DNA of 64,000 nt from Minisyncoccota bacterium (GCA_041663045.1 JBAZRH010000001.1:340403-404402); one strand, 5' to 3'. Numbered from the stretch's first letter, positions 4,990-60,151 are shown. A program made the numbers and translations. Notes: generated from the letters alone by a model not told the origin.

Positions 4990-5035
4990 GTATATATTAT
5001 ATACCCAATGGTCCGTATAATCAAATACATTATTG

Positions 5036-5108
5036 TGGGCGGTGAGGGATTCGAACCCACGACATCAAGAACGTCAATCCTGCGCTCTACCAACTGAGCT
5101 AACCGCCC
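5036..5108 (-). tRNA. tRNA-Val (anticodon GAC)
   Basis: cloverleaf folded by hand: acceptor GGGCGGT/ACCGCCC, D-arm TAGCTCAGTTGGTAGAGC, anticodon loop TTGACGT, T-loop TTCGAAT (one U-U mismatch in T-stem). Confidence 0.8.
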
Positions 5109-5154
5109 AAATTTTCTTTAGAGATATTAGCACAAAAAAGCCAAAAAACAAATT

Positions 5155-5583
5155 GCGGTGTGTATTATACAAAGTTCGAATGTATTTTGAAAGCAACCCT
5201 GATGCCGACTAATCGCACGCGCGGAGCGCGTGGTGGCTCTAAACTGCCTCGTACGCTCGTATCGTTCCGCCACCGCCTCGCAAAGCCTCGGCGGAAACCC
5301 CGAAAGAAAAACACTCCTTGCATTTCTGATTTGGCGGGGGTGAAATTTCTTTTGAAAAAGGAAAGGGTGTTTTTCTTTCGGGGTTCTGCCCTCCAAGTAT
5401 TCGGGCAGGTGGCGGAACAATGCGGACGAAGTTTTGGCAAAACTATTTTTTGGGGAGGAAAGGATTTGCCAAAACTTCGGCTGATTTGTTTTTGAATTCG
5501 GATGTCGCAAGCGGAGGAGGAGGGGTTTGGGGAGGAATTTTCCATTTGCTCCTCTTTTTGTTTTGGGGGAATTCGGGGCGGAC
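5155..5583. repeat. left copy of a 429-bp perfect inverted repeat (partner 9304..9732) bracketing the R-M cassette
   Basis: ORF 5160..5495(+) is identical in protein sequence to ORF 9392..9727(-). Position x pairs with 14887-x. Boundaries checked by nucleotide comparison. GC-richer than surroundings, with internal long imperfect hairpin 5264..5420. Confidence 0.9.
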
Positions 5584-5602
5584 TTCTACAAAAATCTTAT
5601 CA

Positions 5603-5974
5603 TCAACTATCGTTCGTGCCAACTTCTGCTTCACTAATGGTTTGGTAATTTCCACCGATAACTCTGTCCTTGCCCTGACTTGATAGTGCTTGATAAGATT
5701 TTTCTATGTCTTTACTACTAGATCGTAAAGTTCCGATTGTACTTTTGTATTCGCTAATTACATCTTTATAACTTTCACGAATTTGATTTGAAAAGAAAGA
5801 GATTATTGTATAAAGCAATCCTACAGAAATTGAAATTGTTCCTAAAATGCCACGCGGACTTGTAAAATTATTTGCTCCATTCAAGAGCCAGCAACCTGCA
5901 AGAAGCGTGATAAATAACACCAGTATAGATTGAAGTTCAATTTTTTTAATAAGTTCTTGCCACATATTATTCAA
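5603..5974 (-). CDS. hypothetical small membrane protein (island cargo)
   Basis: 123 aa; hydrophobic segment ILVLFITLLAGCWLL; last gene of the minus-strand cassette operon. Confidence 0.4.
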   Translation of the reverse strand: MNNMWQELIKKIELQSILVLFITLLAGCWLLNGANNFTSPRGILGTISISVGLLYTIISFFSNQIRESYKDVISEYKSTIGTLRSSSKDIEKSYQALSSQGKDRVIGGNYQTISEAEVGTNDS

Positions 5975-6620
5975 AGGTGCTATTTATCACGCTCAAAAAT
6001 CCATTATCATCCGCTAAGTATTGTTTGAAACTTTTAAGTGTTGCTGATATATCGCCAATTTCAATTTCTCCAGCTTGAAATACATCAACATCAAAAAGAA
6101 TGCCTAGGGTTTTTGCCTCGTCGTTTTTTACAACAGGTTGTATTACTAAATTTGCGCTAAAATCTTTTCCAGTTTTTACTTCAAGACGAATCACAGACGG
6201 CTTGGTTTCCTTAATAACAGTAAATTTCTTCAAATACTCATCTTGTTTTGCTTGGTCTGCAAATTCATATACAAAATAATTCCGCCAACCAATTCGGCTT
6301 ATTTTTTCAACTTCTAATATCTTTGAAATTGTCTCTGCCTCCTTTGAGAATAGAGTTGAGATCATATCCAACGAATCTGGTTCAGCAAATTTCGCCCACA
6401 CCGCTTGAGCGGTGATTTTTAATTGTTCAATTTTATCTTTCGGATCTTGAATAACTAACCCGTTGAGATTCATTGAAAACTGTGGGGCGGAATTCTTTTT
6501 GTGATAAGCATTCACGATTTCTCCCGCCTTATCAACATACTTAAAACCCTTAATCGTATTGACTTGAATAAACGATTCGGGGTTATTGAGCTTATTTAAT
6601 TTGGCGATTGTTTTGCTCAT
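5967..6620 (-). CDS. hypothetical protein (island cargo, unknown function)
   Basis: 217 aa; 8-nt overlap with downstream ORF suggests translational coupling; no motif recognised. Confidence 0.45.
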   Translation of the reverse strand: MSKTIAKLNKLNNPESFIQVNTIKGFKYVDKAGEIVNAYHKKNSAPQFSMNLNGLVIQDPKDKIEQLKITAQAVWAKFAEPDSLDMISTLFSKEAETISKILEVEKISRIGWRNYFVYEFADQAKQDEYLKKFTVIKETKPSVIRLEVKTGKDFSANLVIQPVVKNDEAKTLGILFDVDVFQAGEIEIGDISATLKSFKQYLADDNGFLSVINSTFE

Positions 6621-6628
6621 AATTATTT

Positions 6629-7426
6629 TTAGTCTATTTTTGTTTCAATTATCTTTTTGAACTTCTTTTCTAACTCTGGTCTTATTTCTTCTCCAACTTC
6701 TTCATAAATTTTGATTAAATCCTCAAAAGTACCGGCTCCACCAAAATAATCCCAAAAATCTTTTCCAATGAGAAAGTCGTTACCTTTGTCGAAAAATTTA
6801 ATACATGTCCATCGTTGGTATTCTTGTGGTGCGTAAGGATTATAATACATGCCTAAAAATATTTTCACCCTTTTACCCTCTCTTGCTTTCATAGCGTAAA
6901 TCTCTAAAAGATCTCTCTTTGCAGCCCTCATTTCATTTTTATTTGGCTTAGGTCCTTTTATCTCGAAATATATTTCTTCGCCGTTATCTCGTTCAAGATA
7001 AAGATCAACAGTTTGAATTCTATCAACTAAATCCTTACTGTCCTGACTTGCATTATAGATTTCTTCTGACTCTTTTTTATGACTTGGCTCTCTCTTTACA
7101 CTATCAAGATCACTGAGAATATTCTCAAATGTTCGCTGTGCTTCGTGTGTAATTTTTCCTTGCAATTTCTCTGTTCCTTGTAGTTTTTTTGCTACCTTAA
7201 AATTTTCTTTGGCAATGATTTTCGCAACTGATTCATGCCAACTACCAAGTGCGGTTTCGCAACCATGTATAAATCCTTTTGCTAAGTAACCCTTCTTTGT
7301 GAAAAGGGCATATTGAAAAGGTTTTGCTGAATCCTCATCGCTTAAATCATACTCCGCAATCTTCCTTAAGATTTTCTCTTTGAGAAATTGGTAAACCTCA
7401 ATTTTTGATTTTTCAGATAAAGCCAT
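6629..7426 (-). CDS. putative Type II restriction endonuclease (candidate PD-(D/E)xK nuclease)
   Basis: 265 aa, immediately downstream of the methyltransferase in the same orientation; VDLYLERDNGEEIYFEIKGPK resembles a D...E.K nuclease core. Assignment is by position and weak motif only. Confidence 0.4.
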   Translation of the reverse strand: MALSEKSKIEVYQFLKEKILRKIAEYDLSDEDSAKPFQYALFTKKGYLAKGFIHGCETALGSWHESVAKIIAKENFKVAKKLQGTEKLQGKITHEAQRTFENILSDLDSVKREPSHKKESEEIYNASQDSKDLVDRIQTVDLYLERDNGEEIYFEIKGPKPNKNEMRAAKRDLLEIYAMKAREGKRVKIFLGMYYNPYAPQEYQRWTCIKFFDKGNDFLIGKDFWDYFGGAGTFEDLIKIYEEVGEEIRPELEKKFKKIIETKID

Positions 7427-7430
7427 ATGA

Positions 7431-9005
7431 TTATTTTACTTTAAAATGAAATATAATTTCTGAATACGGATTTCGATCGCGTTCCGTTCTGTTCAATACT
7501 GGTCGCTTAAACTGATTGACAATCTTCATTCCCGCCTTTTCCGCAATTTCTGGGTAGAGATTATATTTATCATTTGCCACAAGAAAAATGTCAAAATCTG
7601 TTTTGAGGTATTGCTTACAGTTATTTAACACATCTGCAATCCCTTGTGCATATGACCGGCGAGCCTCCATTCCTTGCCCTTTGTATAGCGGCCCAATTTC
7701 TAAATCATCCTTGCGCTTAAATCCAAGAAGGTCATATGCGTAAGCGTGTTGCTCGTGATAATCAATCTGCCCTACATAAGGAGGTGAGCAAAAAATACCA
7801 GCTATTTTTTGTTTTTTTAGAATTTTAGAAAATTCTGGATTTTGCTTCTCTATTTTCTCAAAAATATCTATCGCCCTTGAATCACCAGCTAAAACGGAAT
7901 GGTGAACTGGTTTTCGTAATCTACTAAATTCTCTGATTCTGTTTAATGTATCAAGAGCATAGCGATTGAGCATACTCGTTATCGAGAAAAGAGGTTTGCA
8001 GATTTTTTTGTGTTTATAACAGTAATAAGTCGTAAGTTGAGGTTCTTTGAGGGTTGCGAGGTCGCTGTGCGTAGTCGCACGACACGATCTGATTGTCCTG
8101 CTCAAAATCAGAGCTAACATTTTGCGGGTTTTGACGTCTTTTTCTTGTTTGATTGTTTGGAAAACATGATCTATCTCTCGACGAACATTATCCATAAACC
8201 AAACATCAAGGAAAGAATCGGATTTGTCCTGTTTTAACTTAATTGAATACTTTTTTAGTAGTTTCTGATATACAGGCAAAAACTCCTTCTCTTTTTCTGT
8301 GGCAAATTTATTTTCATCAAAACTTCCTTGATTGATTTTGTATTTAAAGTCAGAACCCGGAAAATGTACCAAGTTAAATTTGGCAAGTTCGGCCAAAAGT
8401 TCGTTTTCAAAATCTTGAATTTTATTGTCATGATCAAAAGAATCAAGTGAAGCAATTAGTTTTTTAATCGCTTTTTGTAAGTACTCATCGTTATAGTGTG
8501 TTGCCTTACAACTTGAAATCATGCAGTTAAATTCAGAAACATCTATACCAACGGAATGAATACCCATTTCAAGCGATTGAATAATTGTTGTCCCAGAACC
8601 CAAGAATGGATCAAGAATAACATCACCTGCTTTGAAATAGGCTTCTTTCTTAAAATCATCAGTATGATTATCTATAAAATATTCAACAAGTTGTGGAATG
8701 TATTTACCTTTATATGGGTGGAGTCGGTGTACATGTTTTGTGGTATCCACCTCTCTTAAATTATCAAAAGAAAGCGTCCAATTTAAATCATCGCCTAGAT
8801 TTTTTTTCCAACTTACTTCGCGCGTGCCATTATAAGAATTATAATATTTTTTTAAATCATTCAAATCAACCATGGTCGAGCCGTTCTCTCCATGTTTTTT
8901 TACTTTTCCATACTGGACAAGGTAAGAAATGTTCGTAGGTAAAACATCTTTCTTGAGATGTTCTGATGCCCATTTTGATGCTTCGGGGATAGTTACTAAT
9001 GACAT
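7431..9005 (-). CDS. DNA amino-methyltransferase (alpha-class; motif I DPFLGSGTT, motif IV SPPY suggests N4-cytosine or N6-adenine)
   Basis: 524 aa; FxGxG-type AdoMet motif near residue 135 and catalytic SPPY near residue 405 with a long target-recognition region between. Confidence 0.8.
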   Translation of the reverse strand: MSLVTIPEASKWASEHLKKDVLPTNISYLVQYGKVKKHGENGSTMVDLNDLKKYYNSYNGTREVSWKKNLGDDLNWTLSFDNLREVDTTKHVHRLHPYKGKYIPQLVEYFIDNHTDDFKKEAYFKAGDVILDPFLGSGTTIIQSLEMGIHSVGIDVSEFNCMISSCKATHYNDEYLQKAIKKLIASLDSFDHDNKIQDFENELLAELAKFNLVHFPGSDFKYKINQGSFDENKFATEKEKEFLPVYQKLLKKYSIKLKQDKSDSFLDVWFMDNVRREIDHVFQTIKQEKDVKTRKMLALILSRTIRSCRATTHSDLATLKEPQLTTYYCYKHKKICKPLFSITSMLNRYALDTLNRIREFSRLRKPVHHSVLAGDSRAIDIFEKIEKQNPEFSKILKKQKIAGIFCSPPYVGQIDYHEQHAYAYDLLGFKRKDDLEIGPLYKGQGMEARRSYAQGIADVLNNCKQYLKTDFDIFLVANDKYNLYPEIAEKAGMKIVNQFKRPVLNRTERDRNPYSEIIFHFKVK

Positions 9006-9009
9006 AGTT

Positions 9010-9222
9010 TTATTTTATCAGATTATCAATGCTTATTCCTAGCCCCTCGGCGATTTTGGTTACAGTTTGGATTGACGGTTTTGTTATAACATTCGATTCA
9101 ATCTTGGTCAGTGTTGTGTAGGGAATATCGCACTTTCTCGCAAGAGCGTCCTGTGTCAATCCTTGCTTTGCGCGAAAGACTTTTATTTTATCCCCAATTT
9201 CTTTATTTTGTTTGCTTTCCAT
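9010..9222 (-). CDS. HTH XRE-family controller (C) protein of the R-M cassette
   Basis: 70 aa Cro/C1-type HTH (GLTQDALARKCDIPYTTLTKIE), first gene of the cassette, 4 nt upstream of the MTase. Confidence 0.7.
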   Translation of the reverse strand: MESKQNKEIGDKIKVFRAKQGLTQDALARKCDIPYTTLTKIESNVITKPSIQTVTKIAEGLGISIDNLIK

Positions 9223-9303
9223 AGTATGATAGTATAAGTATGAGCGTTGAAACTAACCCTCACAACTATACTAACATGAATTTAATCTTTTCTCAATTTT
9301 TTT

Positions 9304-9732
9304 GTCCGCCCCGAATTCCCCCAAAACAAAAAGAGGAGCAAATGGAAAATTCCTCCCCAAACCCCTCCTCCTCCGCTTGCGACATCCGAATTCAAAAACA
9401 AATCAGCCGAAGTTTTGGCAAATCCTTTCCTCCCCAAAAAATAGTTTTGCCAAAACTTCGTCCGCATTGTTCCGCCACCTGCCCGAATACTTGGAGGGCA
9501 GAACCCCGAAAGAAAAACACCCTTTCCTTTTTCAAAAGAAATTTCACCCCCGCCAAATCAGAAATGCAAGGAGTGTTTTTCTTTCGGGGTTTCCGCCGAG
9601 GCTTTGCGAGGCGGTGGCGGAACGATACGAGCGTACGAGGCAGTTTAGAGCCACCACGCGCTCCGCGCGTGCGATTAGTCGGCATCAGGGTTGCTTTCAA
9701 AATACATTCGAACTTTGTATAATACACACCGC
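9304..9732. repeat. right copy of the 429-bp inverted repeat (partner 5155..5583)
   Basis: reverse complement identical to 5155..5583; ORFs inside (9240..9877, 9282..9467, 9392..9727) mirror those in the left copy and are judged non-coding. Confidence 0.9.
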
Positions 9733-9848
9733 CAAAAATCGAAATCAGTTTTTGAAGCCAAAATGGGGTCGCGCCGAAGGCGCGACACTAATGCATTCCC
9801 CCCGCCGAATTCAGAATCCAAAAGGGTTTTCCACGCTCCGCGTGGCTC
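9729..9848. repeat. left copy of a 120-bp inverted repeat (partner 11253..11372) bracketing the serine recombinase gene
   Basis: 9729+11372=21101 symmetry verified base by base; this copy is an inverted duplicate of the tRNA-Ser 3' terminal CCGCC plus its 115-nt trailer. Confidence 0.9.
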
Positions 9849-9869
9849 CTCGTTTGCCAATACAAAATT

Positions 9870-11432
9870 ATGATTGATCACACCAGAAAATTTTTTATAT
9901 ACACTCGTAAATCTACCGATACTGAGGATCGGCAAGTTAGAAGCATTTCGGATCAACTGGCCGAGCTTAAAGAGTTAGCGGTTAAAGAACAAATCGAGGT
10001 TGTTGATATTTTTGTGGAAAAACAAACCGCTAAAGCCCCGGGTCGGCCAGTATTTAATGAAATGCTTCTCCGTATCGAAGCAAATGAGGCAAATGGAATT
10101 TTAGCGTGGCACCCCGACAGATTGGCGAGAAATAGTGTTGATGGTGGAAAAATTATCTATTTGCTCGATACGGGAAAAATTGCCGAGCTAAAATTTCCAA
10201 CTTTCTGGTGTGATACAACACCGCAAGGAAAGTTTATGCTCTCAATCGCTTTTTCTCAATCCAAGTATTACGTGGATAACTTGTCGGAGAATATCAAGCG
10301 CGGACACAGAAACAAAGTGAAGGAAGGAATATGGCCTCAAATGTCCCCGATAGGTTATGTCAATGTGAAAGGTGGTGGAATTATCCCTCACGCAGATTTA
10401 GCACCACTTGTTAAAAAGACATTTGAGGCATATTCAACTGGAAACTTCACTTTGCGGGAAGTCCGCGACAAGTTTAATGGGCTTGGATTGAAAAGAAAAA
10501 GCGGTAGAGAGCTTGCGGTGTCGAATTATCAAAAACTTCTCAAAAATCCTATTTACACCGGACTAATGAGATATAACGGAGAGATTTTTGAGGGAAAGCA
10601 CGAACCGATTATTTCAAAGAAACTTTTTGATCAATGTCAAGAAGTGATGATGAGAAAATCTAAACCTCACTCGAAAGGGCTAAAGCCATTTTTGTACAGA
10701 GGATTTTTCCGTTGCGGAGAATGTGGCTGTTTTATAACTACCGAGCAACAAAAAGGTCATCGCTATCTCCGCTGTACCAAACGGAAAAATCCTTGTACTC
10801 AAAAATATGTTCGTGAGGAGCTCATCACTTCTCAAATTCAAAATGAAATCAAAAAAGTTTCTTTGCCTCTCGATTGGACGGAGTGGATGATTGCCGAAAA
10901 TGCAAAAGATCGGCAATCAGAAGTCCAATCGAGTTCGCTTTTTGTGGATTCTGCAAAAGCCGATATTTCTCTTTTAGATTCCAAGATTGAGAAGCTGATG
11001 ACGGCGTATTTAGAGAACGCACTTTCAATTGAAGAATATCGCGACGCAAAAAGTGCGCTGGTTGCCTCAAAACAGCTTCTCAAAGAGAAATTATCGGCTT
11101 TTGAGCAAAAAGCGAATAATCGGTTCGAACTTACCGAAAAGTTTTTGAAATACAATATGGAATTGGCAAACGAGGGAACAAATGAAGAAAAACTTCATTT
11201 GTTCAAAAAAGTCGGTTCGAACTTTTTAATTAAGGATCGAACCGTACTTTTTGAGCCACGCGGAGCGTGGAAAACCCTTTTGGATTCTGAATTCGGCGGG
11301 GGGAATGCATTAGTGTCGCGCCTTCGGCGCGACCCCATTTTGGCTTCAAAAACTGATTTCGATTTTTGGCGGAAGTGGGAGGATTCGAACCTCCGATGCC
11401 CTTTCGAGCATGCCGCTTTTCGAGAGCGGTGA
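9870..11432 (+). CDS. large serine recombinase (resolvase/invertase N-terminal domain + recombinase domain + zinc ribbon)
   Basis: 520 aa; N-terminal YTRKSTDTEDRQ catalytic-serine region, CGECGC...C zinc-ribbon-like segment, C-terminal coiled coil. Its last ~57 codons are encoded by the inverted repeat and by the antisense of tRNA-Ser. Confidence 0.85.
   Translation: MIDHTRKFFIYTRKSTDTEDRQVRSISDQLAELKELAVKEQIEVVDIFVEKQTAKAPGRPVFNEMLLRIEANEANGILAWHPDRLARNSVDGGKIIYLLDTGKIAELKFPTFWCDTTPQGKFMLSIAFSQSKYYVDNLSENIKRGHRNKVKEGIWPQMSPIGYVNVKGGGIIPHADLAPLVKKTFEAYSTGNFTLREVRDKFNGLGLKRKSGRELAVSNYQKLLKNPIYTGLMRYNGEIFEGKHEPIISKKLFDQCQEVMMRKSKPHSKGLKPFLYRGFFRCGECGCFITTEQQKGHRYLRCTKRKNPCTQKYVREELITSQIQNEIKKVSLPLDWTEWMIAENAKDRQSEVQSSSLFVDSAKADISLLDSKIEKLMTAYLENALSIEEYRDAKSALVASKQLLKEKLSAFEQKANNRFELTEKFLKYNMELANEGTNEEKLHLFKKVGSNFLIKDRTVLFEPRGAWKTLLDSEFGGGNALVSRLRRDPILASKTDFDFWRKWEDSNLRCPFEHAAFRER
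11253..11372. repeat. right copy of the 120-bp inverted repeat; doubles as the tRNA-Ser 3' trailer
   Basis: see 9729..9848; contains a GGGGTCGCG block shared with other tRNA-trailer modules. Confidence 0.9.
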
Positions 11433-11456
11433 TTTCAACCACTCACCCACACTTCC
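11367..11456 (-). tRNA. tRNA-Ser (anticodon CGA), CCA encoded
   Basis: acceptor GGAAGTG/CACTTCC, 3-bp D-stem, anticodon stem CCGCT/AGCGG with loop CTCGAAA, long variable arm, T-arm GGAGGTTCGAATCCTCC, discriminator G + CCA. Confidence 0.85.
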
Positions 11457-11596: not shown

Positions 11597-11745
11597 AAAA
11601 TTTACACAGTAATATTTTTGTGATTTTAAAATGTAAAAGTCTTTACATTTTAAAAGAATCGAAAGACGGACTGAGTAAAGACGAAGGAGTCGGGGTCGAG
11701 AGATTTTTCAGCAGAAAAATACTCGTGACCGATTCACCTTAATAA
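11597..11745 (+). repeat. tRNA-trailer module downstream of tRNA-Glu (family member, lacks a clean terminal direct repeat)
   Basis: contains GGAGTCGGGGTCGAGAG and CGTGACCGATTCACC blocks matching GAGGCGGGGTCGCGA and TTGTGACCGATTCA in the tRNA-Gly and tRNA-Lys modules; AT-rich hairpin right after the tRNA. Confidence 0.55.
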
Positions 11746-16911: not shown

Positions 16912-16918
16912 TGTAAAA

Positions 16919-16946
16919 GCGGCGCACGAAGTGCGCCGCTTTTTTG
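16919..16946 (+). terminator. rho-independent terminator (GCGGCGCAC-GAAG-GTGCGCCGC + TTTTTT)
   Basis: perfect 9-bp GC-rich stem, 4-nt loop, T-tract, directly after hsp20 stop. Confidence 0.8.
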
Positions 16947-16958
16947 TGCCGAGGGCCG

Positions 16959-17130
16959 GGATCTCTCCTTCGCCTCTCGGTTCGCCGTCGCTTGCCTCGG
17001 AATAGGCACCAGCTCATCAGTTTTTCTTGCTAGAAAGACATGATTCCGCTGTTCTCGCCCGGACGCAAGCAAAGCAGTTTGCTTGCGTCATCGGCACATT
17101 TAAAAACACCTCATCGGTGTTTTCTAAATG
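16959..17130 (-). repeat. tRNA-trailer module attached to tRNA-Phe. Ends with a 16-nt direct repeat (TGTGCCGAGGGCCGGG, 16959..16974) of the tRNA 3' end (17129..17144)
   Basis: contains inverted pseudo-copy of the tRNA T-arm/acceptor 3' strand interrupted by the conserved hairpin GACGCAAGCAAAGCAGTTTGCTTGCGTC; conserved blocks GAGCTGGTGCC and AGCGACGGCGA; terminator-like hairpin that includes the tRNA 3' end. Confidence 0.75.
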
Positions 17131-17783: not shown

Positions 17784-17822
17784 TTATTGTTGAATATAAC
17801 ATAAAAACCAGTTAGAAACAAA

Positions 17823-17850
17823 AAGCGGCGCACTTCGTGCGCCGCTTTTT
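17823..17850. terminator. bidirectional terminator hairpin (AGCGGCGCAC-TTCG-GTGCGCCGCT flanked by A-run and T-run)
   Basis: perfect palindrome with UUCG loop between tRNA-Arg and the glutaredoxin-like gene. Confidence 0.7.
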
Positions 17851-18144: not shown

Positions 18145-18338
18145 TTTGTGCGGGTGGCGAGAATAAAATGAATCGGTCACAAGTTCTGGCTCGTCGCCAC
18201 TCGCCAGACTCGCGACCCCGCCTCGTAGTTTTTTGAAGCAAAAAACATACTCTGGCTTCCGATTCTCGACGCGAGCAAAGCAGTTTGCTCGCTCCACCCG
18301 CACAAAATAAATAATCCCCGTTTTTAGGATTATTTATT
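18145..18338 (-). repeat. tRNA-trailer module attached to tRNA-Gly. Ends with a 19-nt direct repeat (TTGTGCGGGTGGCGAGAAT, 18145..18163) of the tRNA 3' end (18339..18357)
   Basis: a 24-bp AT-rich hairpin incorporates the tRNA 3' end. The inverted copy of the tRNA 3' half (CCGATTCTCG...TCCACCCGCACAA) is split by conserved hairpin ACGCGAGCAAAGCAGTTTGCTCGC. Blocks GAGGCGGGGTCGCGA and TTGTGACCGATTCA are present. Confidence 0.8.
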
Positions 18339-59979: not shown

Positions 59980-60151
59980 GGAGCCGTTGACCAGGATCGC
60001 TCGCAACTCAAAATCTTTCCGTCGAAAAATTTTTGTCTGGGCACCGGCTCATAAAATTTTCTGCAGAAAATTTTTGACTCCGCCGTTCGCTCCTGGACGC
60101 AAGCAAAACCCTTTGCTTGCTTAAACGACTCATCCTCACTTCGTTCATCTG
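59980..60151 (-). repeat. tRNA-trailer module attached to tRNA-Thr(GGT). Ends with a 19-nt direct repeat (GAGCCGTTGACCAGGATCG, 59980..59998) of the tRNA 3' end (60151..60169)
   Basis: contains inverted T-arm copy CCGTTCGCTCCTGG, conserved hairpin GACGCAAGCAAA-ACCC-TTTGCTTGC, block GAGCCGGTGCCCAGAC and palindrome AAAATTTTCTGCAGAAAATTTT. Confidence 0.8.

Follow-up and report, generated by a model that had tools for sequence, protein, structure and literature searches.

A probable small integrative element carrying a large serine recombinase and two inverted copies of its attachment region at a tRNA-Ser gene of a Minisyncoccota bacterium

In the phiC31, Bxb1 and A118/LI systems, recombination of attP with attB yields attL and attR. 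The large serine recombinases (LSRs) of Tn4451 and Tn5397 (TnpX, TndX) excise a circle and insert it without a separate directionality factor, and when the ends of the Tn4451 circle are joined they create a promoter that serves the recombinase gene. SCC elements accrete in tandem and are not known to contain an internal inverted att copy. The gene for the serine recombinase Hin lies between inverted repeats, while FLP of the yeast 2-micron circle is a tyrosine recombinase on a replicating plasmid, where it flips DNA freely. Compact restriction–modification (R-M) mobility units have also been described (Furuta, Abe & Kobayashi, 2010, PMC2853133); units integrated at tRNA genes have on either side a long direct repeat similar to the tRNA 3' end, a tyrosine-type integrase homolog is described in one passage, and other units are transposon-like, with inverted repeats and a short target duplication. 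The phrase 'serine recombinase' is absent from the paper.

The window analysed here, a 64,000-nt stretch of a Minisyncoccota genome (GCA_041663045.1 JBAZRH010000001.1:340403-404402), holds two pairs of long inverted repeats. Searches of the region and of the whole window reproduced both pairs reported in a preliminary description: the arms of IR1 (5155-5583 and 9304-9732) are 429 nt long and those of IR2 (9729-9848 and 11253-11372) 120 nt, each pair being 100% complementary, a length and perfection of match far beyond chance. No further long repeat was found in the 64,000 nt. The pairs had been taken for two nested, separate systems; instead, they overlap by four nucleotides, CCGC, at 9729-9732, and are one duplicated att region of about 545 bp, of which one copy (A'.CCGC.B', 9304-9848, between the cargo operon and the LSR gene) is intact and the other, inverted, is split at CCGC into the halves 5155-5583 and 11253-11372. 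It is because one of the two copies is split that perfect repeats of 429 and 120 bp lie back to back with CCGC in common. The earlier judgement that this is no textbook layout holds.

The left arm of IR1 (A, 5155..5583) is the P-arm half of the split copy, at attR, and starts with the core, read there as GCGG (5155-5158). Its right arm (A', 9304..9732) is the P arm of the intact copy, and the last ~45 nt of A' form a half-site conserved in the family of related loci described below, ...GGATT..C.AA...TTCGAA-N16-CCGC. The left arm of IR2 (B', 9729..9848) is the P' arm of the intact copy and makes up most of the LSR upstream region; the right arm (B, 11253..11372), 100% complementary to 9729-9848, is the P' half of the split copy, at attL, where the core again reads GCGG (11369-11372). 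The core of the intact site, 9729..9732, is the same four nucleotides. At every locus examined CCGC is invariant at all three junction types, tRNA/B', A'/B' and A'/X, where X is host spacer, and these match attL, attP and attR of a single system exactly. The P' arm and the host half-site X are weakly conserved, unlike typical quasi-symmetric att sites.

The A arm does not code for protein: its homologues differ by indels whose lengths are no multiples of three, and its hairpins show compensatory changes. B' contains a conserved GC-rich hairpin (9768..9786; mirror copy 11315-11333, inside the LSR ORF), in which each of three stem pairs shows 16-21 double (compensatory) changes, with 0 broken, among 45 sequences. 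Three nucleotides from the inner edge of IR2 lies the palindrome CCACGC-TCC-GCGTGG (9831..9845), whose stem is nearly invariant and whose loop is variable in the family alignment, and whose mirror copy (11256-11270) codes for P-R-G-A-W; the palindrome at this edge is the feature cited in connection with template switching or gene conversion. A promoter-like site on the plus strand of the P arm (9696..9723, TTCAAA-16-TATAAT) reads over the core towards the LSR gene. The T..AAT hexamer at this position is largely kept in the family alignment, and the site may act as a promoter. Its mirror copy (5164..5191, minus strand), which points outward to tRNA-Val, is a consensus match only (10/12 positions).

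We propose, with a probability of about 0.72, that 5155-11372 is a 6.2-kb small non-phage integrative element, inserted by its LSR into tRNA-Ser(CGA) and carrying two inverted att regions. The LSR would catalyse attP x attB recombination at CCGC, placing the element in the 3' end of tRNA-Ser(CGA), between tRNA-Ser and tRNA-Val. Of its two inverted copies of the ~545-bp att region (P arm A', core CCGC, P' arm B'), integration would cut the one where the LSR gene and the cargo converge with their 3' ends, and its halves would become the element ends: attR (5155-5583), which abuts X, and attL (11253-11372), which is fused to the tRNA. We predict that excision gives a 6.2-kb circle with two inverted att regions between an LSR segment of 1.4 kb and a cargo segment of 3.7 kb.

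The target, tRNA-Ser(CGA), lies at 11367..11456 on the minus strand (ARAGORN, Rfam), and tRNA-Val(GAC), the host gene at the far side of the insertion, at 5035..5108 on the same strand (ARAGORN; Rfam tRNA, 65.9 bits). In tRNA-Ser(CGA) the core CCGC comprises the last two acceptor-stem bases, the discriminator G and C74, and the right arm of IR2 provides the CA of the CCA end. Native tRNA-Ser genes, in relatives and in the window, have the CCGC end without CCA; the unoccupied tRNA-Ser(GGA) of the window ends in CCGC followed by AGAAGG, with no encoded CCA. The 46-nt host spacer X (5109..5154) would have formed the right half of the target before insertion, when attB is predicted to have been tRNA-Ser...CCGC plus X. 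The X-side flank is different in each genome with a family member. The proposed insertion between tRNA-Val and tRNA-Ser gains support from a relative with an empty site (L114, TsaD identity just 62%), in which the two tRNA genes are directly adjacent: tRNA-Ser...CCGC is followed by a 55-nt spacer and by tRNA-Val on the same strand. X agrees with this arrangement, and the adjacency is what the predicted empty site calls for. The neighbourhood FtsZ-TrxB-tRNA-Val-tRNA-Ser-tRNA-Glu-TsaD-ValRS is kept in relatives, and those with the same neighbourhood have no island. In close strains the uninterrupted junction is predicted as ...CACTTCCGC running directly into AATTTG...; a sequence search gave 0 matches to the exact predicted attB string, and none of the contigs checked was circular. 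The distance between TTCGAA and CCGC is 16 nt in the P arm and 11 nt in the tRNA T-loop; this is the 5 bp by which the zinc-ribbon-domain motif is displaced in attB relative to attP of serine integrases (Rutherford et al., 2013, PMC3783163).

The LSR ORF (9870..11432, plus strand, 520 aa) has Pfam Resolvase, Recombinase and Zn_ribbon_recom domains and an N-terminal YTRKST motif with the presumed catalytic serine. As the preliminary description had it, the right copy of IR2 forms the 3' coding end, through which the ORF runs into the tRNA-Ser gene. Residues past about aa 440-460 are a read-through tail from the att arm and the tRNA flank; diversity at third codon positions is far greater than at positions 1 and 2 up to ~aa 400 and equal at all three after ~aa 440, and ORF lengths across homologues range from 502 to 560 aa. 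The 21-nt leader between IR2 and the ATG (9849..9869, plus strand) contains the invariant TCGTTTGCCAATACAA, with no Shine-Dalgarno sequence visible in it. The best NCBIfam match is CcrB, at 97.6 bits against a cut-off of 900, which rules out a Ccr protein. Similarity to PDB entries is remote (1e-5 to 1e-6), and the LSR was not found in phage or viral collections. Homologues number 7115 at E <= 1e-20, the best 120 of these at 80-93% identity. Between distant Patescibacteria lineages LSR identity is 75-93%, as against only 72% for the best TsaD relative; together with the third-position substitutions, this suggests strongly that the LSR is functional and mobile.

These values bear on the view that the locus is an immobile relic, that is, an old, vertically inherited rearrangement near tRNA-Ser in which the recombinase has been domesticated and ordinary gene conversion keeps the repeats alike. 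Such a history, to which we give a very slim chance, would agree with the fixed orientation, with the failure to observe a circle or excision product and with the lack of an identified directionality factor. It would not lead one to expect an LSR at 75-93% identity across lineages where TsaD reaches at most 72% even in the closest metagenomic relatives, nor the occupation of various tRNA-Ser isoacceptors and unrelated host flanks, the missing island in relatives with the same neighbourhood, and the several copies and tandem arrays found inside single genome bins.

The cargo is the minus-strand operon first described, and Pfam and PADLOC matches now support its first three genes. These are a C (control) protein (9010..9222; HTH_3, Pfam 9e-15; PADLOC Control_protein 1e-9), a DNA methyltransferase of the N6_N4 type (7431..9005; Pfam PF01555; PADLOC MTase_II PDLC03249, E = 6e-224, full length), with motifs read from the sequence in the order FxGxG, long insert, SPPY, and a type II restriction endonuclease, RE_TdeIII (6629..7426; Pfam PF09520, E = 2e-55, profile 4-242 of 242; PADLOC REase_II, 3e-28). 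Two further ORFs, of 217 aa (5967..6620) and 123 aa (5603..5974), are also called on Logan contig L002 and have no Pfam, NCBIfam or PADLOC match. The cargo is thus predicted to be a C-protein-controlled type II R-M system with two function-unassigned genes. In 6 other loci, too, a C-protein homologue sits where the cargo comes closest to the LSR, and in the window the intact att copy fills all but ~100 nt between the operon and the LSR gene. The cargo has no replication gene, and comparison of the family loci revealed no conserved recombination directionality factor in it.

The same architecture recurs in other Patescibacteria genomes. A ~120-nt repeat surrounds the LSR gene with 98-100% identity at 24 of 31 mid-contig loci, and at 17 of the 24 its arms are 100% identical; the left arm always stops ~21 nt before the ATG and the right arm spans the last ~40 codons. 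A-type repeats (82-273 nt, at least 99% identity, all starting GCGG) occur at 17 other loci, where they enclose 1.5-6.4 kb of variable cargo, mostly type II R-M genes, in keeping with the earlier notion of a recombinase-associated R-M module; the outer flanks are unrelated from genome to genome. A tRNA-Ser gene lies at the LSR 3' end at 61 of 72 family loci (anticodons gct, cga, tga, gga and act), and an A'-type conserved arm on the 5' side at 51 of 62. The architecture is a conserved trait of a very large, tRNA-Ser-specific Patescibacteria family. This island family is very common and apparently undescribed; no published description of an LSR/duplicated-att island family was found. Paired inverted repeats would be the mark of islands that contain a spare intact attachment site. 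Within a genome the arms share 98-100% identity, between genomes ~72%, as anticipated when perfect arms were attributed to recency or homogenisation.

Recurrence on this scale makes an assembly artefact, in the form of collapsed or chimeric repeats, scarcely credible. The source is a metagenome-assembled genome, perfect repeats are suspicious, and many related contigs break here: of 80, 35 stop somewhere in the 600 bp upstream of the LSR gene, which is what assembly interrupted by repeats would give. Nevertheless, the same geometry with different sequences is found in more than 25 independent assemblies, made in various studies with various assemblers and counting among them two records titled 'chromosome: 1' (OY969413.1, locus L015; OZ246398.1, locus L045), and in an independent SRR18595301 assembly the Logan contig stops 30 nt into the 429-bp arm, as it would for a true repeat.

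Orientation is fixed across the family, with tRNA on the LSR 5' side at just 5 loci against the 61 with tRNA-Ser at the 3' end, and with the cargo on the strand opposite to the LSR in 15 of 17. For this reason we do not follow the suggestion of an invertible, phase-variable R-M module, in which the LSR would invert the segment that the 120-bp arms enclose, with its own gene, the segment that the 429-bp arms enclose, with the R-M operon, or both; free flipping would give about half and half. Moreover, the arms are identical and non-coding, so inversion would restore the same junctions and leave the immediate flanks of the cargo unaltered, and the enzyme belongs to the large serine recombinases rather than to the small invertases. 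The arrangement is reminiscent of Hin, and perfect arms are the upkeep expected from frequent flip-flop. A homologous M+R pair has the opposite orientation relative to the LSR in L042 and L047, and in L018 the LSR is reversed relative to the tRNA; the cargos of L042 and L047, however, are composed differently and are not plain inversions of that in the window. We regard a switch as a slim possibility.

The family also includes rearranged derivatives. LSR cassettes lie between two convergent tRNA-Ser genes in L037, L040 and L061, and tRNA-Ser is at the LSR 5' side in L018 and L052. L059 and L061 have a cassette in common, 99.6% identical only from the core onwards; to the left of the cassette lies A' in one of these loci and tRNA-Ser in the second. 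L074 is a tandem array with a hybrid P/P' junction and the order cargo, LSR, cargo, LSR, tRNA. Because of the tRNA-Ser-flanked cassettes, the L059/L061 breakpoint and the L074 array, the internal att copy appears to be recombination-active.

The derivatives could also be read as a modular chain, in which a self-mobilising LSR cassette (CCGC.B'-LSR-B.GCGG, 9729-11372) and a non-autonomous cargo cassette (GCGG.A-cargo-A'.CCGC, 5155-9732) are independent modules bounded by inverted cores. The LSR would excise, invert, stack or exchange each cassette singly, possibly owing to a palindromic crossover dinucleotide (CG or GC) in CCGC. LSR cassettes that lack the A arm on one side or on both (L018, L037, L040, L061), the confinement of the L059/L061 identity to the cassette, the strict alternation in L074, ending at the tRNA, and the free variation of cargo between conserved arms are consistent with this, as is L165, an A-bounded R-M cargo without any LSR and 92.7% identical to the R-M genes of the window. 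We consider independent modules unlikely, though not far-fetched. Of 62 loci, 51 have A' next to the LSR cassette, no locus was seen in which an LSR cassette stands alone between a tRNA and ordinary host DNA, and the LSR-less copy in L165 looks decayed, with arms 92% identical and short palindromes at the expected cassette position. Cassettes between two tRNA-Ser genes are better explained by inversion of the internal attP with a second tRNA-Ser, because simple insertion cannot yield them.

As to why an integrative element should duplicate its att region and keep the arms identical, we infer that the internal copy may serve as LSR promoter/operator and may itself be a usable attP, and that identity could be kept by gene conversion or template switching, or could reflect the recency of each insertion. 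Against our proposal, two identical att copies on a circle would be expected to be used equally, yet the loci divide 61 to 5; selection against tRNA-driven LSR expression is our guess for the bias towards the 3' copy. The L074 array would also imply that attP recombined with attL or attR, at a site already occupied; this counts against the proposal because canonical serine integrases do not perform such reactions. We leave excision as a prediction because no directionality factor is conserved in the cargo.

The island resembles phage large serine integrase systems (phiC31, Bxb1, A118/LI) in the Resolvase, Recombinase and zinc-ribbon domain set, in the very short common core at the junctions and in a conserved motif whose distance from the core is 5 bp shorter in the half-site of the host than in that of the element (PMC3783163). 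It differs in that the LSR is only remotely similar (PDB, 1e-5 to 1e-6) and absent from phage and viral collections, the target is a tRNA 3' end, the LSR ORF crosses the att site and a second intact attP lies inverted inside the element; in the family, comparison revealed no directionality factor, conservation is weak in one half-site of each partner and tandem insertion occurs at an occupied site (L074). With SCCmec (CcrAB/CcrC) the island has in common a small non-conjugative cargo cassette moved by an LSR whose best NCBIfam match is CcrB, insertion at the 3' end of a conserved housekeeping gene that is left intact, and tandem accretion (L074). In contrast to SCCmec, its LSR is not a Ccr (97.6 bits, cut-off 900), there is one recombinase gene rather than a ccrAB pair, and the target is tRNA-Ser, not rlmH. 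As in Tn4451, a promoter-like site reads across the core, whereas Tn4451 and Tn5397 are not known to have long inverted repeats or to target tRNA genes. The predicted circle, with two long identical inverted repeats and a site-specific recombinase coded in one of two unique segments, recalls the yeast 2-micron plasmid and plastid-type circles by analogy only, since the island has no replication gene and a fixed orientation. Its serine recombinase gene sits between inverted repeats as in the Hin/Gin/Pin invertases, but the recombinase is large, the arms are 120 nt and perfect, inversion would alter no junction and orientation in the family is fixed. Finally, the island is like the compact R-M mobility units (PMC2853133) in combining R-M with an integrase at a tRNA gene and unlike them in having, without target duplication, a serine recombinase and a duplicated, inverted att region.

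The repeat search confirmed the two perfect inverted-repeat pairs of the preliminary description, and these are the sole long repeats of the 64-kb window. The first, IR1, has arms of 429 nt (A and A', 5155–5583 and 9304–9732), and the second, IR2, has arms of 120 nt (B' and B, 9729–9848 and 11253–11372). The pairs had been taken for two nested systems, a picture that did not hold: they overlap by the four nucleotides CCGC (9729–9732), which we call the core, and the middle block, 9304–9848, has the order A'.CCGC.B'. At the left end of the island stands the reverse complement of A'.CCGC, and at the right end, joined to the tRNA, that of CCGC.B'. To judge from the sequence, IR1 and IR2 are one duplicated region, not two. 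In the tRNA sense, the island reads tRNA-Ser.CCGC.B'–(LSR, reversed)–B.GCGG.A–cargo–A'.CCGC.X–tRNA-Val, where LSR is the large serine recombinase and X a 46-nt host spacer (5109–5154). The outer junctions have the form of attL (host arm/element arm) and attR (element arm/host arm), and the internal block 9304–9848 has that of an intact attP, inverted. On the best-supported reading, the island (5155–11372) would be an LSR-driven integrative element specific for tRNA-Ser.

The island lies between tRNA-Val(GAC) (5035–5108) and tRNA-Ser(CGA) (11367–11456), both on the minus strand, in a 428,695-bp contig of a 'Candidatus Paceibacterota' metagenome-assembled genome. The core corresponds to the last two acceptor-stem bases of tRNA-Ser, the discriminator G and C74, and the 'CA' of the CCA end comes from the element. 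An unoccupied tRNA-Ser(GGA) in the same window ends CCGC/AGAAGG. A DDE-type or composite transposon is ruled out, since Pfam and NCBIfam searches found no transposase domain at the island and its flanks (...aaatt/GCGG and GCGG/aagtg) carry no direct target-site duplication.

The LSR (520 aa, 9870–11432, plus strand) is encoded between the IR2 arms and, as first described, its ORF crosses the right arm and ends inside the tRNA gene. A resolvase domain (PF00239, E = 7e-21, residues 9–154), with a YTRKST motif at residues 11–16 of the translation that carries the presumed nucleophilic serine, is followed by Recombinase (PF07508, 2e-15) and zinc-ribbon (Zn_ribbon_recom, PF13408, 5e-8) domains. Third codon positions are far more diverse than positions 1 and 2 as far as about residue 400, indicating purifying selection; from about residue 440 the three positions are equally variable. 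Full family ORFs run to 502–560 aa and none stops before the end of the B arm. On these last two grounds, the part of the LSR encoded by IR2 and its flank looks like a read-through tail, conserved as DNA. In the 3' region, where synonymous diversity falls, no conserved overlapping ORF that might be a hidden directionality factor was consistently open.

Characterised enzymes are remote from the LSR. PDB matches reach 1e-5 to 1e-6, and the A118 integrase aligns over residues 210–352 only. The top NCBIfam matches are CcrB (97.6 bits against a cut-off of 900) and XisF, and the CcrA and CcrC equivalogs score 56 bits (cut-off 700) and 44 bits (cut-off 900). A scan of IMG/VR found relatives at 23–26% identity and no close one, which rules out a known viral integrase, and the att region 9304–9848 had no blastn match in phage or plasmid collections. 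The exact 520-aa protein is absent from the gene-position index; only one gene fits between the accessions MFA6227191 (methyltransferase) and MFA6227193 (TsaD), so the deposited genome probably lacks an annotation for one of the two, the LSR or the C-protein. A second LSR family, 31–42% identical to that of the window, occurs within a few kb of a family element in several genomes (L009:6760–8154, L010:11477–12961, L066:1574–2968, L080:2935–4137, L042:13424–14932). The 3' end of the L010 copy adjoins tRNA-Ala(ggc), and there may be sister LSR families with other tRNA targets.

The cargo, that is the genes between A and A', was as previously described: Pfam, NCBIfam and PADLOC identified, on the minus strand, a C-protein (HTH_3), an N6_N4 methyltransferase of 524 aa, an RE_TdeIII endonuclease (E = 2e-55) and two ORFs matching nothing in these collections. 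The defence-profile check proposed for these genes gave a full-length match of the methyltransferase to the PADLOC type II model (E = 6e-224). The operon is of type II, with control protein, methyltransferase and endonuclease (C-M-R) in single gene copies. The 429-nt arm is ruled out as coding sequence, because its homologues show indels that are not multiples of three and differ by whole hairpin modules. With non-coding arms and single-copy type II C-M-R genes, phase-variable restriction-modification (R-M) through shufflon-type inversion of hsdS or mod is likewise ruled out. The arm folds well above shuffled controls (z = −5.8 and −7.7); Rfam covariance models run on the island gave it no family match, and returned chance-level miRNA matches only, below gathering scores. 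A Logan contig of SRR18595301 with the endonuclease gene begins at ∼7487, in the middle of the methyltransferase gene, which suggests strain-level variation, or a second R-M cassette context, in that sample. In an ENA contig (ERZ27297709) the endonuclease is identical and the genes that come after it, of 129, 139 and 250 aa, are different.

Elsewhere in the window, Rfam tRNA matches (44.3 bits, above the gathering score) fall on two identical 73-nt direct repeats (26884–26952 and 28524–28592, minus strand) for which ARAGORN makes no call. The anticodon loop is apparently CUUAAAG, and each repeat lies directly upstream, in the minus-strand sense, of an ORF without a Pfam match (473 aa, 25452–26873; 486 aa, 27058–28518). 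Short conserved hairpins and repeats adjoin tRNA genes and lie upstream of TsaD, for example AAAAGCGGCGCAC...GTGCGCCGCTTTTT and GACGCAAGCAAAGC..GCTTGCGTC (11696–11730 and 28728–28762; 16915–16944 and 17820–17849; 17062–17098, 18268–18304 and 60096–60132). These probably act as terminators or belong to a small family of dispersed repeats.

Homologues of the LSR are numerous: 7115 were found at E ≤ 1e-20, with lengths of 490–647 aa, and the best 120 of these are 80–93% identical to it. The few that are named by source belong to Patescibacteria (Liptonbacteria, Pacebacteria, Minisyncoccia). Taking one genome per species, the family scan yielded 80 loci. A contig end lies within 600 bp upstream of the LSR gene in 35 of the 80 and within 600 bp downstream in 13. 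Such clustering is what repeats that break assemblies would give, and a true repeat would also cause the independent Logan assembly of SRR18595301 to end, as it does, 30 nt inside the 429-nt arm. The contigs of the closest LSR relatives on long contigs (P0006 and P0008) both begin ∼200 bp upstream of the LSR gene, leaving no cargo to compare. An inverted repeat of ∼120 nt with 98–100% identity is present in 24 of the 31 mid-contig loci (100% in 17 of these), with the geometry seen in the window: the left arm stops ∼21 nt short of the ATG, and the last ∼40 codons lie in the right arm. An A-type repeat of 82–273 nt, starting GCGG and at least 99% identical, bounds 1.5–6.4 kb of cargo in 17 loci, and the DNA outside it is different in every genome. 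Records titled 'chromosome: 1' supply two of these loci, L015 and L045. That the repeats arise from assembly collapse, as had been considered at the outset, is contradicted by this recurrence of one geometry in independent assemblies, L015 and L045 among them. Between genomes the B arm is only ∼72% identical (median), as against 98–100% within loci, from which we infer that the arms evolve in concert within each element.

Cargo differs among the 17 loci and no gene is common to all. It consists mainly of type II R-M genes, with endonucleases of the HpaII, TdeIII and DpnII types, methyltransferases of the EcoRI-type, C5 and D12 classes, and control proteins; AAA_13, UvrD, RadC, an S24/LexA-like protein, D-Ala-D-Ala ligase and TspO occur occasionally. 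Where a C-protein is present, it occupies the LSR-proximal end of the cargo and is transcribed away from the LSR; in 15 of the 17 loci the cargo is on the strand opposite the LSR. No protein family is found in all 17 cargos; small ORFs of unknown function are present, and directionality factors are too diverse for recognition by sequence. A Nomurabacteria contig that also bears a family element contains a LOOT RNA (RF03000, 82 bits; L030:8735–8856, minus strand), unrelated to the finding.

A tRNA-Ser gene, with any of five anticodons, lies beyond the LSR 3' end in 61 of the 72 loci with sequence there, and the conserved A' arm lies beyond the LSR 5' side in 51 of 62. A tRNA is on the 5' side in 5 loci, as compared with the 61 that have one at the 3' end. 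This fixed orientation and the symmetry of the arms contradict a phase switch; an invertible R-M module, one of the readings first offered, also fails because cargo is opposite the LSR in 15 of 17 loci and the arms are identical and non-coding. A switch operated by a serine invertase of the Hin/Gin type is ruled out by the 520-aa length and LSR domains of the protein, by the orientation across loci, and because inversion between identical arms would keep the junctions. As to the bias itself, our guess is selection against integrants in which the LSR is read from the tRNA promoter.

The neighbourhood FtsZ–TrxB–tRNA-Val–tRNA-Ser(cga)–tRNA-Glu–TsaD–ValRS is kept in metagenomic relatives of the host (TsaD at most 72% identical), one of which (L127) has a family LSR at the same tRNA-Ser(cga). 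Another supplied the empty-site comparison proposed earlier: in L114, a distant relative with 62% TsaD identity, tRNA-Ser(cga) ends ...CCTCCGC, and a 55-nt spacer separates it from tRNA-Val, which is on the same strand, within the same FtsZ–TrxB...TsaD–ValRS neighbourhood. This is the layout of the window minus 5155–11372, where spacer X has 46 nt. Excision would restore an empty attB predicted to read ...TCCTCCCACTTCCGCAATTTGTTTTTTGG...; the exact predicted same-species empty site had 0 matches in JGI metagenomes.

Three further observations concern the flanks. Among the TsaD relatives (L087–L162), the divergent pair tRNA-Ser(cga)/tRNA-Glu(ttc) upstream of TsaD occurs in both orientations in comparable numbers, and the strand and position of tRNA-Val vary as well. 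The region seems prone to small inversions, perhaps as a trace of element activity in the past. At four loci (L026:3578–3640, L051:9501–9560, L030:1673–1730, L069:9504–9560) the LSR 3' arm abuts a ∼45-nt non-tRNA sequence that is alike in all (...CTTACA.GGCTTG...GGTAC.TAAC.CGAGT.../CCGC). RNase P or another known RNA gave no Rfam match there at gathering score, and the flank may represent a pseudo-attB, or an unrecognised small RNA whose 3' end lies there. In the left host flank of L045 (∼1965–1985) and L057, ∼45 nt beyond the A arm, 15–19 nt match the 3' end of the occupied tRNA-Ser exactly (GGTTCGAATCCCACACTCT). This copy is inverted with respect to the genuine tRNA, precedes a terminator-like hairpin and may have been left by an earlier event.

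The att alignment comprised 45 internal copies. In these the P arm (the A side) is strongly conserved (GGATT..C.AA...TTCGAA-N16-CCGC), the P' arm (the B side) is weakly conserved and a 21-nt leader, TCGTTTGCCAATACAA, is invariant. All loci examined have CCGC at attL, at attR and in the internal copy. The distance from TTCGAA to the core is 16 nt in the P arm whereas it is 11 nt in the tRNA, where the motif belongs to the T-loop, in every locus listed. For the LI/A118 integrase the motif bound by the zinc-ribbon domain is 5 bp nearer the centre in attB than in attP (Rutherford et al., 2013, PMC3783163). The att layout would fit this 5-bp shift in its left half-sites only; the right half-sites have no clear motif, and the P' arm is too variable for the crossover dinucleotide to be pinned by P/P' arm symmetry. 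A GC-rich hairpin in B' has three pairs with 16–21 double (compensatory) changes each and none broken, and both IR2 arms have a palindrome, CCACGC-NNN-GCGTGG, 3 nt from their inner edge. A sigma-70-like site, TTCAAA-16-TATAAT (9696–9723), reads over the core towards the LSR gene, and its mirror (5191–5164) reads outward to tRNA-Val; both are consensus matches only. An orphan internal att copy occurs at L009:12181–12716, where A'.CCGC.B' and the conserved leader (...GCCAATACAAAAT) are followed by non-LSR sequence.

Several derivatives bear on the mechanism. In L037, L040 and L061 two convergent tRNA-Ser genes that differ in anticodon enclose an LSR cassette, and in L052 tRNA-Ser is on the LSR 5' side, the contig ending before the 3' flank; the arms of all four are degraded (72–96%). 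Simple insertion cannot give this layout, which would be the expected product of recombination between the internal attP and a second tRNA-Ser. L018 reads tRNA-Ser.CCGC.B'–LSR–B.GCGG and then diverged A-like sequence, an arrangement to be expected of integration via the other att copy. Two different genomes, at L059 and L061, have in common a cassette 99.6% identical over 1684 bp. The identity starts at the core, and the cassette adjoins A' on its left in L059 and tRNA-Ser(gga) in L061. L074 contains a tandem array, [A2–cargo2–A2'.c.B2'–LSR2–B2].c'.[A1–cargo1–A1'.c.B1'–LSR1–B1].c'.tRNA-Ser, whose junction is a hybrid P1/P2'; the array in L033 is similar. An LSR-less copy in another genome (L165:8264–12928) has the C-M-R genes of the window, 92.7% identical over 2675 bp, with the endonuclease gene called as two pieces. 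These genes lie between 321-nt A-like inverted arms (92%) adjoining tRNA-Val(cac), and short perfect palindromes (CCAAAAAATCACC...GGTGATTTTTTGG) stand at both ends in the expected place of the cassette.

The cassette of L059 and L061, the tandem arrays of L074 and L033 and the LSR-less L165 would be well accounted for if LSR and cargo were independent cassettes, each bounded by inverted cores, a reading that we nevertheless think quite unlikely. It is possible, if doubtful, that the whole family is a serine-recombinase cassette system: P.CCGC.P' would form every internal junction, with modules for the recombinase and for cargo in alternation, each enclosed by inverted cores. A single LSR might then suffice to insert R-M (defence) cassettes at tRNA-Ser genes, and to stack, invert or exchange them there, with no need of a directionality factor. 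Chromosomal inversions from one tRNA-Ser gene to another would also be driven by the internal attP. More speculatively still, the long inverted arms could pair within a DNA strand taken up singly in natural transformation and so restore the att site and promoter to double-stranded form.

For a single LSR-driven element at tRNA-Ser, our preferred reading, the att region would be present twice, inverted. The copy at the convergent 3' ends of LSR and cargo would be split on integration, and the other would stay intact and double as the LSR upstream region. The excised form would be a 6.2-kb circle with two inverted repeats of ∼545 bp; no circular contigs were present among the 80 genome loci. Identity of the arms may come about by template switching, favoured by the palindrome at the IR2 edge; alternatively, the canonical copies may just be young, in keeping with the degraded arms of dead-end derivatives.

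Few mobile elements have been described in Patescibacteria (the candidate phyla radiation), whose genomes are tiny. The present family appears to be very abundant and confined to them, with more than 7000 LSR homologues, 75–93% identical across distant lineages, and it carries R-M and other genes into tRNA-Ser genes. It explains assembly breaks at the LSR gene in many Patescibacteria and points to a source of inversions between tRNA-Ser loci. The LSR would be a new serine integrase with unusual, largely one-sided target recognition; being native, compact and site-specific, with a target in every cell, it would be an attractive genetic tool for a group that is very hard to manipulate. The internal inverted attP raises testable questions about regulation, directionality and concerted arm evolution.

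We know of no intact inverted attP inside the integrated element in the textbook serine-integrase cycle. In open-access full text we found described neither an LSR element of Patescibacteria specific for tRNA-Ser nor any integrated serine-integrase element in which an intact attP is retained in inverted orientation. Small cassettes moved by an LSR are known from SCC elements. An SCC-type cassette chromosome requires a Ccr equivalog and integrates at the 3' end of rlmH (orfX), whereas the LSR of the island falls far below the CcrA, CcrB and CcrC cut-offs and its target is tRNA-Ser. Hin/Gin invertases are small (∼190 aa) with a C-terminal HTH, in contrast to this 520-aa LSR, and shufflon-type R-M systems have inverted repeats inside alternative copies of the specificity gene, whereas the arms of the island are non-coding. 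R-M mobility units were described in 2010 (PMC2853133). The predicted circle would resemble the 2-micron-type layout, but it has no replication gene and no evidence of flipping. If the island did belong to a cassette system, that system would be a natural counterpart of recombinase-mediated cassette exchange, or would give Patescibacteria an integron-like platform.
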